DNA of 64,000 nt from Candidatus Bathyarchaeota archaeon (GTDB taxonomy: Archaea > Thermoproteota > Bathyarchaeia > Bathyarchaeales > Bathycorpusculaceae), in assembly GCA_963767735.1 (NCBI GenBank), contig CAVYES010000004.1:448001-512000 (forward strand). The letters run 5' to 3'. Within the stretch, counting starts at the first letter, position 1, and every line of letters starts with the position of its first letter. Both the position numbers and the translations under genes were made by a program. Shown piece after piece: positions 60,173-64,000 of this stretch. The notes below the pieces were generated by a model. It did not search any database. It was given only the letters and a program-made list of their open reading frames with translations, and was not told where the DNA came from.

Positions 60173-61096
60173 ATGATTGAGACTGAGAACCTTACAAGGA
60201 AGTTCGGTAACCTGACTGCGGTCGACAACCTAACTCTTCGCGTAGACAAGGGCGAAGTCTTCGGTTTCCTTGGACCAAACGGGGCAGGAAAGACCACCAC
60301 AGTCAGAATGCTCTGTTGCCTGATATCCAAGACAAGCGGCAAAGCCCGAATTGGCGATTACGAGATTGGCAACCAAGAAGCTGCCCTGAAGATCAGGAAG
60401 ATCATCGGGCTTGTCCCTGACAACGTGGGCCTCTACGAGTCGCTGACCGCCTATGAGAACCTGGACTACTACGGAACGCTTTACAGACGCAGTGACTCAG
60501 AGCGAAAGGAGAGCAACGAGTACTTCCTCAAGCTGCTTGGGCTCTGGGAAAAAAGAGATGCTCTTGCGGGGTCGTTCTCGAAAGGGATGAAACAGAAGCT
60601 CGCCATAGCACGCGCGCTTGTCCATGACCCTGAAGTTCTTTTCATGGATGAACCAACCGCAAACCTAGACCCTGAAGCCGCAAAAGCGGTGAGGGAGTTC
60701 ATCCTTGATTTGAAAAAGGAGAAAAAAACCATCTTCATCAATACGCACAACCTTGATGAGGCTCAGAGGATCTGTGACAGGATCGGCATTTTGAATACTC
60801 GGCTGATGGCTGTCGGTACCCCTGAAGAGATCAAGCGGACGATACGAGGAAGAAAGACTGTGATTCAGCTGATACAGGTGAACGAAGCAATTTTGATCGC
60901 GTTGAAGAGACTCCAGGTCAAGAACATGGTCAGGGACGGCAACAAGCTCTATGTCGATGTAGAGAACTCTGAGGAAGAGAATCCTGACATTATAAACGCG
61001 ATTGCCGCAGCAGGCGGACGCATCGAGACAGTTACAGTGATTGGCAGCTCGCTCGAAGACGCTTACCTAAAACTCGTGAGGGAGAACGCACAATGA
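60173..61096 (+). CDS. ABC exporter ATP-binding protein
   Basis: GPNGAGKT, FSKGMKQK, DEPT. Confidence 0.92.
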   Translation: MIETENLTRKFGNLTAVDNLTLRVDKGEVFGFLGPNGAGKTTTVRMLCCLISKTSGKARIGDYEIGNQEAALKIRKIIGLVPDNVGLYESLTAYENLDYYGTLYRRSDSERKESNEYFLKLLGLWEKRDALAGSFSKGMKQKLAIARALVHDPEVLFMDEPTANLDPEAAKAVREFILDLKKEKKTIFINTHNLDEAQRICDRIGILNTRLMAVGTPEEIKRTIRGRKTVIQLIQVNEAILIALKRLQVKNMVRDGNKLYVDVENSEEENPDIINAIAAAGGRIETVTVIGSSLEDAYLKLVRENAQ

Positions 61097-61830
61097 CCGC
61101 TTGGATGCCGTGGAAGATAGCGCGCAAGGAGTTGAAGGTGATCAGCAGAAAAAAGAGCATAATGTTCTATACCATTGCGCTTCCCCTTCTTATGGCCGTT
61201 CTTTTTTCACTCGTCATCAGAAATCAAGTAGCCTCTGGAATTCCCACGGCGCAACAACTACAACTTGGTGCAGAATCAATCATTTACTTGTACGTTGTTT
61301 TAGCCGCTGCTCTGCCTAGTACGATTGCAGCCTACAGTATAGTGGGCGAAAAGATTGAGAAGACGTTGGAACCTTTGCTCGCGACCCCCACGACTGACGG
61401 CGAAATTCTTCTTGGGAAAAGCATCGCAGCGTTCTTGCCGCCTTTGCTCTCGACGTGGGCCGGAGTGTCAATCTTCATGGCGGCATCGGACTACATACTG
61501 CACAACGCGGGGTTAGGCTACTATTATTTTCCCAATTGGAACGCGGGGGTTATGCTGTTAATCCTCGTGCCTCTCGCAGCAGTTTTCAGCGTTGAAGTAG
61601 GCGTGATTGCTTCATCCCGCGTGAGCGATGTACGAGGCGCAAACCAGATCTCGGGCCTGATGTTTATTCCGTTCATGGCTGTCTTTCTTGCGGGAGTAGA
61701 AGGAATCATTACACTAAGCATCAATACCCTACTGGTCTTCGCCGTCGGCGTGCTCATTGTCGATTTAGCTTTATATTTCGTGAGCACAGGCACTTTTAAG
61801 CGAGAAGAAATACTTACAAAGTGGAAATGA
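61093..61830 (+). CDS. ABC-2 type permease
   Basis: SIVGEK..KTLEPLLATP, ILLGK. Confidence 0.88.
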   Translation: MTAWMPWKIARKELKVISRKKSIMFYTIALPLLMAVLFSLVIRNQVASGIPTAQQLQLGAESIIYLYVVLAAALPSTIAAYSIVGEKIEKTLEPLLATPTTDGEILLGKSIAAFLPPLLSTWAGVSIFMAASDYILHNAGLGYYYFPNWNAGVMLLILVPLAAVFSVEVGVIASSRVSDVRGANQISGLMFIPFMAVFLAGVEGIITLSINTLLVFAVGVLIVDLALYFVSTGTFKREEILTKWK

Positions 61831-61931
61831 GGCAAGATCGATTGTGCGAGAAGGCCCACATGAACTCAACCATTGGGCACGTCAATTGTTTCAACAAAGT
61901 TTAAAAATCCCATTAAGAATGATTTGAAATC

Positions 61932-61994
61932 ATGGCGGGTGAGTGGACCTCCATCCGTTCCGCCATAATAAAACCCGGAGTAGGAGGAAAAAAT
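61932..61994 (+). promoter_or_regulatory. structured 5' UTR, candidate translational riboswitch
   Basis: TTTAAAAA TATA at 61900; stem 61932-61938/61960-61966; loop CCTCC complementary to SD GGAGG 61983-61987. Confidence 0.5.
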
Positions 61995-62114
61995 TTGAAA
62001 ACCATAAAAACAAAAATAGCCATATTGAGTAATTTAGCCATTTTATATGTGGCGTTAACCCAAATTTTAACCATGCAGTCTTTTCATTCTTCCCCTTGTG
62101 AGGTGAAAGTATGA
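61995..62114 (+). pseudogene. N-terminal remnant of a QueT-like transporter
   Basis: MKTIKTKIAILSNLAILYVALTQIL resembles QueT TM1 (..ALYVALT); strong SD; stop overlaps the queC start. Confidence 0.5.
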
Positions 62115-62874
62115 GGAAAGCGGTAGTGATGTGCAGCGGAGGCGTTGATTCCGTAACAGCTCTCTATTACGTTGCTAAAATTATTCGGGCTAACCCAATC
62201 TTGGTCATTAACGCCGATTACGGTCAACGGATGGTTAAGGAAGAGCGTTGGTGCGTCAAGAAAGCCGTTGAAGATTTAGAAAAACAAGGCTTCAAAAGCT
62301 CATACAAAGAAATTGATATTTCATGGATGAAAGAGCTTTCCACAAGCTTACTGGTCCAAGAGAACGTTCCCGTGCCAGAGACGCCTCAAGAAGACATCTG
62401 GGACGCAGGAAAAAGCAAAAAACAGAATCCTCAGATGGTGGGATGTCGTTCGCAACACAATGTTGCTGACTATCGGTTTGGCTCATGCAGAACACTTTGA
62501 CTTAGACAGCTACATCAAAACAAAAGAACGCGACATCTACGACGTTTACATAGGAATCAGAAGAGAAGGACCCGTCGCGATGAAAGACAACACCCCCGAA
62601 TTCGTCGCAGAGATGAATCGTCTTGTTGAGCATGCAACCCACTTTGGCGGATACAAAATCTCAGCGCCCCTGCTTGAACGTCGACAAAGACGGCGTGGTC
62701 GCACTAGGAAAAGCGTTGGGCGTAAACTACCTTTACACTTACAGTTGCTATCAAGGATGGGACTGGACAGACAAAGGCGAACCCGTTCACTGCGGATTCT
62801 GCAGCAACTGCCGACGAAGAAAAGAAGCGTTTGCGCTCGCAGGAATACAGGATCCAAGTAAATACGCTCGGTGA
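62111..62874 (+). CDS. queC: 7-cyano-7-deazaguanine synthase-like protein (two indels)
   Basis: SGGVDS PP-loop, DYGQR, TYSCY, HCGFCSNCRRR. Confidence 0.85.
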
Positions 62875-62928: not shown

Positions 62929-63303
62929 ATGGGGAACCTGAGAATGTATCGTTTAAGAGTTGAATCGACCTTTGACGCAGCCCACAAACTCGTTGGCTTC
63001 GTTGGAAAATGCTCTAACCTTCATGGACACACTTGGAAAGCCGAAATCTTCGTCGTAGGAAATGAACTGGACAAAATTGGAATGCTCGTAGACTTTGGAT
63101 TGCTAAAAGAAAAACTGCGCGAAATAACAGATAAACTTGACCATAGCTTTCTCAACGACTTCGATGAAATAGGCAATCCCACATCCGAAAACATTGCAAA
63201 ATACATCTTCCAAAACCTCAAAGACCTGCCGAAAAACGTAGTCTTGGAAAAAGTCAGGGTCTGGGAGAGCTCCCAAAGCTGGAGCGAATACTTTGAAAAC
63301 TGA
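62929..63303 (+). CDS. queD: 6-carboxy-5,6,7,8-tetrahydropterin synthase
   Basis: FDAAH, C.NLHGH, LDH..LN, PTSEN, VWES. Confidence 0.95.
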   Translation: MGNLRMYRLRVESTFDAAHKLVGFVGKCSNLHGHTWKAEIFVVGNELDKIGMLVDFGLLKEKLREITDKLDHSFLNDFDEIGNPTSENIAKYIFQNLKDLPKNVVLEKVRVWESSQSWSEYFEN

Positions 63304-63313
63304 ACAAGTAAAG

Positions 63314-63421
63314 ATGAGAATAGGTTTGCTTAAAGGTGGCGCAGATTCCACTAAGCGCGTACAAGAATCAAGCATCGAAGAACCGCCTATTTTGAGGTTG
63401 AAAAAAGAGGGTAAAATGTGA
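63314..63421 (+). pseudogene. 35-aa ORF, possible internally deleted second queC
   Basis: MRIGLLKGGADST resembles the PP-loop LSGGxDST; SIEEP resembles the QueC tail GIxDP; stop overlaps the queE start. Confidence 0.4.
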
Positions 63422-64000
63422 GAATCTCAGAGATTTTTTACTCCGTCGAAGGGGAAGGCATTGAGATTGGCAGAGTAGAAGTCTTTGTTAGGCTTTCGAA
63501 TTGCAACCTTAATTGCAAATGGTGCGACACAAAATATGCTGAGCAAGATGGCAGAGAAATGGAAATACAAGAGGTCCTTTCAGAAATTGAGAAGTACCCC
63601 TGCAAAAACATTTCCATAACTGGTGGAGAACCGCTCTGCCAAAGCAGTCAATTGCTTGACCTATTAAGCCAGCTAAAGAGTTTGGGTTATTGGGTGCAGA
63701 TTAATACAAACGGCACATTGTTCGACCGAAGGATTTTTGAATTAGTAGATTTGGTAAGCATGGACTGCAAGTGTCCATCTTCGGGCGAGGAAAGTAACAT
63801 GGCGGTTATAGAAAAAACCAGAGCGTTGTTTGATCATAAGACTCAACTTAAATTTGTGGTTTCAGACAAAACAGACTTAGATTACGCCAAACGCGTAATT
63901 AAAAAATTAAACCCGACCAACTCCATTATCCAACCCGAATGGACACACAGAAAATTTGCGAGTAAAATAGTGGATTCAGTTAAAAAAGACGGGTTGAACT
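63418..64000 (+). CDS. queE: 7-carboxy-7-deazaguanine synthase (radical SAM), truncated by window end
   Basis: VRISEIFYSVEGEG, FVRLSNCNLNCKWCDTKY, ITGGEPL, NTNGT. Confidence 0.93.
   Translation, partial: MRISEIFYSVEGEGIEIGRVEVFVRLSNCNLNCKWCDTKYAEQDGREMEIQEVLSEIEKYPCKNISITGGEPLCQSSQLLDLLSQLKSLGYWVQINTNGTLFDRRIFELVDLVSMDCKCPSSGEESNMAVIEKTRALFDHKTQLKFVVSDKTDLDYAKRVIKKLNPTNSIIQPEWTHRKFASKIVDSVKKDGLN

Follow-up and report, generated by a model that had tools for sequence, protein, structure and literature searches.

What does the leader ahead of the queT′-queC-queD-queE genes of an uncultured archaeon do, and to which molecule might it respond? The locus lies near the end of the window, by which we mean the whole 64,000-nt stretch analyzed here (Candidatus Bathyarchaeota archaeon, assembly GCA_963767735.1, contig CAVYES010000004.1, positions 448,001 to 512,000 of the forward strand), and all coordinates below are those of the window. 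An earlier note, made from the letters of the window, had described a candidate riboswitch in which a pseudoknot hides the Shine–Dalgarno (SD) sequence, and inspection of the sequence found every leader feature that it listed in its place. Comparison with counterparts in other genomes indicates that the leader is almost certainly a conserved, pseudoknotted cis-regulatory RNA and very probably a metabolite riboswitch that turns translation off. We further propose that it probably represents a new class of translational OFF riboswitch, built on an H-type pseudoknot and sensing preQ0 (7-cyano-7-deazaguanine).

A conserved leader element and the genes behind it

When 291 nt around the leader were compared with 40 related genomes using blastn, only positions 61933 to ~62000 matched, the rest of the intergenic region being unconserved. 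The match was recovered at 73–89% identity in 26 of the 40 relatives (E <= 5e-5), both in the window's own genus and in other families of its order. About 35 bases of this ~60-nt element (61930–61991) are invariant or near-invariant, many of them outside helices. In alignments A1 and A2 the invariant blocks are GGCGGGUGAGU, C..C.A.CCGUUCCGCC and A.AAA.CCCGG, with a G-rich SD further downstream. The parts of the leader, including two stems (P1 and P2), a loop segment (L1) and a linker (L3), are laid out as follows.

61893–61907, forward strand: predicted archaeal promoter, in which the TATA box TTTAAAAA (61900–61907) comes after an A-rich stretch
61930–61991, forward strand: the whole conserved RNA element, its extent given by covariance model R1
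61932–61938, forward strand: 5′ strand of P1, AUGGCGG, with the core GGCGG at 61934–61938
61939–61947, forward strand: L1, GUGAGUGGA, a near-invariant GUGAG and then the G-rich 5′ strand of P2 (GUGG, 61943–61946)
61948–61952, forward strand: anti-SD CCUCC, the 5′ strand of the distal pseudoknot helix
61954–61959, forward strand: UCCG (61954–61957), the 5′ strand of the proximal pseudoknot helix, and an invariant UU before the 3′ strand of P1
61960–61966, forward strand: 3′ strand of P1, CCGCCAU, complementary to AUGGCGG
61967–61979, forward strand: L3, the A-rich AAUAAAA (61967–61973) and an invariant CCCGG, of which CGG(A) at 61976–61979 is the predicted partner of UCCG
61983–61987, forward strand: SD GGAGG, the 3′ strand of the distal pseudoknot helix

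Model R1, built from 20 sequences, scored the window's element at 71.9 bits (E 1.2e-17), the sole strong match in its own 3.04-Mb genome. Within the window's class (Bathyarchaeia), R1 matched 93 of 151 genomes, 72 of 95 high-quality ones and 53 of 79 genera. A draw from the phylum gave 27 positive genomes out of 151 (15 of 131 outside the class), and 16 of 121 genomes were positive in an Asgard-labelled phylum, to which a Hodarchaeota-titled genome belongs. We also scanned bacteria and archaea, each species represented by one genome, for a strict degenerate DNA pattern, revealing at least 120 matching stretches. Among the 80 titles listed for these matches, 60 were Bathyarchaeota or Bathyarchaeia and 11 carried Nitrososphaerota-type labels, the rest being Methanomethylicota or Methanomethylicus (3), Promethearchaeota or Hodarchaeota (3), 'archaeon' (2) and Spirochaetales (1). 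The Spirochaetales match (L112) is a chance occurrence: it lies inside an open reading frame (ORF), its first gap is 37 nt long and neither QueT nor QueE follows it. It was excluded from all structure counts and retained in the total of 182 instances, which comprise 170 unique sequences.

The genes that follow the element belong consistently to one pathway. According to a hidden Markov model built from these ORFs, a QueT-like ORF stands behind the element in 173 of the 182 instances, and 141 of 142 complete ORFs matched Pfam QueT (PF06177); the contig end cuts a further three instances after a QueT-like start, as judged by eye. Four instances stand directly ahead of queE, a radical-SAM protein whose top NCBIfam matches are all QueE models, although below their curated cut-offs, with queC further downstream in three of the four. 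The remaining two are the chance match L112 and the window itself. A QueT-like ORF was also found in 13 of 13 loci fetched from the Asgard-labelled phylum. The 3′ strand of the pseudoknot ends 2–11 nt ahead of the start codon, mostly 6–8 nt.

Start codons at these genes are often weak. Among 161 unique QueT loci, TTG was the commonest regular start (68), and ~29 had no in-frame ATG, GTG or TTG at the usual distance, offering near-cognate codons instead: ACG in 10 (for example, L123, L124, L153 and L156), CTG in 9 (L100, L106, L170 and L176), ATA in 4 (L180 and L183) and others. Some of these may be artifacts of our rule for the permitted start-codon distance, as an ATG lies just upstream in L012, L016 and L119. 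Several genomes carry more than one match, three in G154 and two each in G091, G099 and G129. Extra copies L055, L059 and L072 also stand ahead of QueT-like genes, while the third G154 copy (L065) is degenerate, with a weakened P1.

The family also shares a promoter signal. Across the 170 unique upstream regions, an A-rich signal falls at −40 to −36 and a T/A box at −34 to −28 relative to the first base of P1, and the window's TTTAAAAA begins at −34. Because the box keeps a fixed distance across the family, transcription is predicted to start just 5′ of P1. The usual archaeal TATA-to-start spacing puts the start a few bases before P1, at a predicted ~61927–61931 in the window.

Base pairing within the element

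Stem P1 was 99% paired among 62 model-derived sequences, with pair 1 being G-C in 45 and A-U in 15, and pair 5 being G-C in 60 and C-G in 2. In the 170 unique sequences, pair 1 was 98% paired (GC 131, AU 25, GU 6, CG 3), and one sequence had U-A as its first pair (UGCGG/CCGCA). Positions 2–5 are uninformative in the pattern-derived loci because they are fixed by the pattern. P1 lies outside a second covariance model, R2, yet was still 99% paired.

For the pseudoknot we used an alignment-free measure, namely the best uninterrupted helix that the loop can form with the 22 nt following CCCGG. In 168 of 169 unique loop/tail combinations this helix reached 5 bp or more, and 62 helix types were represented. 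Loops scored 17.0 with their own tail, compared with 15.49 ± 0.17 for permuted tails (0 of 2,000 permutations reached the observed value) and 12.4 when their own tail was shuffled. Anchoring on the CUCC/GGAG core, which is present in 146 of 169 combinations, we found offset −1 to be C-G in 113, U-G in 15 and U-A in 11, offset −2 to be 73% paired with four pair types and offset +1 to be 63% paired; at each of the three, none of 2,000 shuffles was as high. The 23 combinations missing the core include fully compensated helices that do not resemble an SD: UCCGAC/GUCGGA, CCGAC/GUCGG, ACAUCUC/GAGAUGU, GUCUCU/AGAGAC, CUUCC/GGAAG and GCCCCC/GGGGGC. A 9-bp loop-tail helix (UUCACCUCC/GGAGGUGAA) occurs in one member, and compensated helices from the Asgard-labelled phylum include CCUCGC/GCGAGG and UUCGCA/UGCGAA.

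Model R2, under which the window's element scored 58.1 bits, carries both pseudoknot segments and produced two alignments, A6 from 62 model-derived and A7 from 100 pattern-derived loci. For P1 and the pseudoknot together in A6, 94.5% of cells were paired, compared with 88.2% after shuffling and 47–66% when the partner was slid, and 69 cells had changed on both sides where shuffles gave 21.8. For the pseudoknot only in A7, the corresponding values were 92.3%, 83.2% and 48–68%, with 93 cells changed on both sides where 24.4 were expected. The distal helix was 95% paired, with both-side changes in five of seven pairs in A6 and in all seven in A7. The prediction that the stem and the anti-SD:SD pairing would recur in orthologous leaders is thus borne out, both being conserved and covarying.

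Two competing helices had also been suggested, and they fared differently. The first, GUGG/CCAU, corresponds to P2 (GUGG(G)/(C)CCAC), a hairpin present in the minimum free energy (MFE) fold. It is conserved with modest covariation: its pairs are 94% paired, mostly through G-C/G-U changes, with U-A replaced by C-G in two sequences, and one pair on the model-fitted alignment is UA in 46, GC in 7 and CG in 2. P2 and the pseudoknot are mutually exclusive because C61951 and C61952 are used by both the anti-SD and the 3′ strand of P2. The two folds of the window's leader are comparable in energy: by a rough estimate without a pseudoknot penalty, the hairpin comes to about −18 kcal/mol, and the alternative adds −11 to −14 for the tail duplex to −10 for P1. 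The second helix, CGGGU/ACCCG, received no support, as both of its strands are invariant and show no covariation, and it is contradicted by L044 (GGCGC/GCGCC), which keeps P1 and would break it. We also rejected a third helix, in which the G-rich part of L1 would pair with the linker's CCC: several members (for example, L011, L019, L088, L098 and L136) have an A-rich L1 or none at all, and a mutual-information scan revealed no pair between L1 and this CCC. RNAalifold, run on the first MAFFT alignment, returned only a nested hairpin with one covarying pair because it is blind to pseudoknots.

Several observations weigh against a pseudoknotted switch, or at least temper the figures above. Folded alone, the leader is no more stable than chance (MFE −18.4 kcal/mol, z = −0.88, 34 of 200 shuffles equal), as is a 221-nt stretch (z = −0.53), and the case rests on comparison because the lone fold is not significant. 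The comparison has its own biases: A6 and A7 were fitted to the pseudoknot and hence lean towards it, the relatives are not independent, so shuffle tests overstate significance, and the covariation of P2 is weak. Since the ribosome also constrains the SD, the CCUCC/GGAGG complementarity could in part reflect two sequences that are each useful on their own; against such independent conservation stand the compensated variants, but they are a minority, with 23 of 169 lacking the core. The proposed TCCG/CGGA pairing was upheld only in part. Its CCG:CGG portion never varies and, being invariant, provides no covariation, and only around half of the sequences form the fourth pair, although its two bases are linked (U faces A in 15 of 21 cases, and A otherwise occurs in 37 of 144; Fisher p 7e-5, uncorrected for relatedness). 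Five low-scoring loci (L066–L070) lack CGG altogether. Lastly, contigs from RNA libraries cover 61944–62099 and parts of queT′, queC and queD, and as contigs they are silent on the start, strand and level of the transcript; DNA may also be present in such libraries, and we do not take these contigs as proof of expression.

Two subgroups depart from the consensus. The five loci without CGG (from G084, G100, G033, G105 and G114) replace CCCGG with CCCCAAAA and CCGUU with CCGCU or CCGAU, and carry an additional UGAC after P1; they retain P1, a covarying loop-to-SD helix and the QueT gene, and may be a variant of altered specificity or a decaying form. In the Asgard-labelled phylum, L207–L212 have CCGUGCU or CCGAGUU instead of CCGUU before the 3′ strand of P1, a 6-bp P1 (GAGCGG/CCGCUC) and SD partners of the GCGAGG type.

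Mechanism, ligand and rival explanations

How might such an element work? We propose that the mRNA opens with a cis-acting riboswitch that would alternate between two folds. In fold (a), a long hairpin of P1 and P2 would partly bury the anti-SD CCUCC and leave the SD free, so that translation would be on. In fold (b), an H-type pseudoknot, P1 (GGCGG/CCGCC) would be kept while the tail (CGGR...GGAGG) pairs with the loop's 3′ half (CCUCC...YCCG) and the A-rich linker crosses P1, sequestering the SD 2–11 nt before the start codon and turning translation off. We infer that a ligand would favour fold (b), in a pocket presumably formed at the junction of P1 and the pseudoknot by the invariant unpaired GUGAG, UU and AUAAA-N-CCC. 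That ligand may be preQ0 or a close 7-deazaguanine, whose binding would lock fold (b) and shut off either the importer subunit QueT or the preQ0-synthesis genes.

The choice of ligand draws on gene association and on the gene content of the window's own genome. Besides queC, queD and queE, this genome (94.9% complete) has one TGT gene of ArcTGT size (a 551-codon open frame) and yielded no match to QueF. PreQ0 would therefore be the last free base of the pathway, and it is for this reason that we name it as the ligand; we regard preQ0, or a compound very close to it, as the likely metabolite. One published account describes queT as a predicted preQ1 transporter with transport activity not experimentally verified, lists queT and qrtT as predicted precursor transporters that are in some cases controlled by preQ1 riboswitches in bacteria and considers an archaeal preQ0 salvage route likely (PMC5372724).

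The most serious rival, which we consider unlikely, is that the conserved SD-masking pseudoknot responds to something other than a metabolite, being either the operator of a protein (for example, one from the archaeosine pathway) or a ligand-independent fold that could set low or temperature-dependent translation. Against it stand the ~35 invariant bases that this 60-nt RNA carries, many outside helices, and the presence of an unchanged element across two phyla before two unrelated genes of the pathway, a transporter and a radical-SAM enzyme. Because it combines these invariant bases with two unrelated genes of one pathway, the element bears the usual signature of a metabolite aptamer. Moreover, no conserved protein gene besides the targets travels with it in the neighbourhoods examined, and no k-turn-like G-A pairs could be drawn by eye. 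Conservation itself, the covariation of P1 and the pseudoknot and the gene association do not discriminate, as they are equally compatible with a protein operator, and the abundance of weak starts (TTG in 68 of 161, near-cognate codons in ~29 of 161) fits a gene held at low translation.

A riboswitch for a ligand other than preQ0, such as guanine, preQ1, 7-carboxy-7-deazaguanine or the archaeosine or queuine base, strikes us as less likely again. The gene association indicates a pathway rather than a compound, and the role of queT as a preQ1 transporter is a prediction, both of which leave room for this alternative. The presence of queC, queD, queE and TGT without a match to QueF favours preQ0, as preQ1 would not be expected to be made in this genome, bearing in mind its 94.9% completeness.

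The weakest alternative is that the conserved sequence encodes a small leader peptide or a leaderless ORF starting at AUG 61932, the leaderless case being one that the earlier note had itself raised against its proposal. In the window this AUG opens a 60-codon frame into queT′. The alternative can be dismissed, as ATG occupies this position in only 10 of 170 unique sequences (TAG, TGA or TAA in 18), the frame from it closes within 40 codons in 139 of 170 and loop plus linker lengths are evenly spread modulo 3 (58/57/55).

Relation to known riboswitches and layout of the locus

A preQ0-sensing, SD-masking riboswitch ahead of queT would invite comparison with the three preQ1 classes. Searched against Rfam 15, the window had no family at its gathering score, and at E <= 10 there was no relevant match, including to preQ1-I, preQ1-II and preQ1-III, in 61500–62500 or in 20 other element loci; the sole overlap was a 19.5-bit chance match to a viral stem-loop. 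This outcome of the Infernal search fits the earlier suggestion of a new class. A literature search, which extended neither to motif lists in supplements nor to most subscription journals, found no archaeal preQ1 or preQ0 riboswitch and no queT-leader motif. The element shows general traits of riboswitches, namely conserved structure, covarying helices, a consistent association with the genes of one pathway and a place in a 5′ leader, the start of the latter being predicted from the promoter signal.

The closest likeness is to preQ1-I, which also has H-type topology, a 5-bp P1 followed by an A-rich strand and a 3′ tail pairing with the 3′ part of the P1 loop, and which sequesters the SD ahead of que biosynthesis or transporter genes with an expected OFF logic. 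The archaeal element has P1, the loop-tail helices and an invariant A-rich linker, a likeness of topology only. It differs in being about twice as long, with a long conserved L1 (GUGAG...) and other invariant bases, in having a bipartite second helix (CCG:CGG plus a 5–9-bp anti-SD:SD helix) and in occurring in archaea, where preQ0 rather than preQ1 is the likely ligand. With preQ1-II and preQ1-III, which are known only from certain bacteria and precede queT in some of them, it shares the association with queT and a ribosome-binding site inside a pseudoknot helix, but its helix order and conserved bases are different and it has no embedded extra hairpin. The same published account notes that queT is sometimes found downstream of preQ1 riboswitches (PMC5372724). 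SAM-II and SAM-V riboswitches follow the general mechanism proposed here, a ligand stabilizing a classic pseudoknot with the SD in its 3′ strand; their sequence, ligand and genes are unrelated, making this an analogy only.

Taken together, we lean, with somewhat less confidence than for the ligand, towards a first essentially archaeal riboswitch class, which would also make a fourth class, distinct in structure, for queuosine/archaeosine precursors, sensing preQ0, sequestering the SD and controlling both import (QueT) and synthesis (QueE/QueC). As part of this same reading, the element would be common to Bathyarchaeia, other Thermoproteota (Methanomethylicus-type) and Asgard archaea, and hence either ancient or spread among archaea. 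A 2017 survey lists 79 representatives for Euryarchaeota, six for Crenarchaeota and a single one each for Korarchaeota and Thaumarchaeota (PMC5473149), a picture that a widespread and nearly archaea-only class would alter, if true. It would also offer a handle on the regulation of tRNA-modification precursors in uncultured Bathyarchaeia and Asgard archaea, support the import of preQ0 by archaeal QueT and provide a new small 7-deazaguanine aptamer fold that could be tested in vitro as a 60-nt RNA.

The arrangement around the window's own copy differs from that in congeners. A 164-nt spacer separates an ABC-2 permease gene (61093–61830; Pfam) from the que genes, which are as follows.

61995–62114, forward strand: queT′ remnant of 39 codons, with a TTG start 7 nt after the SD and the stop TGA at 62112–62114
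62111–62874, forward strand: queC (Pfam QueC), in three frames in the assembly
62929–63303, forward strand: queD, 6-carboxytetrahydropterin synthase (NCBIfam TIGR03367, 102.6 bits against a cut-off of 89.25; Pfam PTPS)
63418–64000, forward strand, running past the end of the window: queE, 7-carboxy-7-deazaguanine synthase (QueE models, 140 bits; Pfam Radical_SAM)

The labels queT′-queC-queD-queE given in the earlier note hold, on the evidence of the QueT alignment, Pfam QueC and the NCBIfam QueD and QueE models. For queE, the top NCBIfam matches are QueE models below their curated cut-offs, the protein being truncated by the end of the window.

The ORF at 61995–62114 (39 aa) aligns with the first ~37 residues of QueT proteins and has no Pfam match, and it does not qualify as a full-length member of PF06177; it is a remnant and not a QueT gene. 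No PF06177 was found anywhere else in its genome either, at 94.9% completeness. Congeners have the element, queT (~170 aa) and queC in succession, with queD and queE not adjacent. Across the leader, the remnant and the start of queC, public short-read contigs are colinear with the window, one from an RNA library spanning 61944–62099, and the deletion of queT is real because the contigs of other runs share this order. The importer thus seems to have been lost while the switch was kept ahead of the synthesis genes. The stop of queT′ overlaps the start of queC (ATGA, 62111–62114), with GAGGUGA just upstream. Because queT is cut to 39 codons with its stop overlapping the start of queC, the switch may now act on queC-queD-queE, putatively in part through translational coupling. 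The window would then illustrate the re-use of a switch, its original gene deleted and its leader and 39-codon remnant placed directly on queC.

In the assembly, queC is divided among three frames covering Pfam QueC profile positions 1–82, 82–168 and 152–208, and the junctions (62406–62408 and 62677–62679) adjoin homopolymers. Every contig covering either junction lacks one base (four public runs; three runs per site). As all covering contigs are one base shorter, the breaks are single-base insertions in the assembly and the population's queC is intact, which rules out a pseudogene. Other broken genes in the same assembly may share this cause. Contigs of one run (95–99% alike) skip 15 bases upstream of the promoter (61844–61860) and, where queD starts (62933–62945), 12 bases altogether, revealing length variation at the level of strains.

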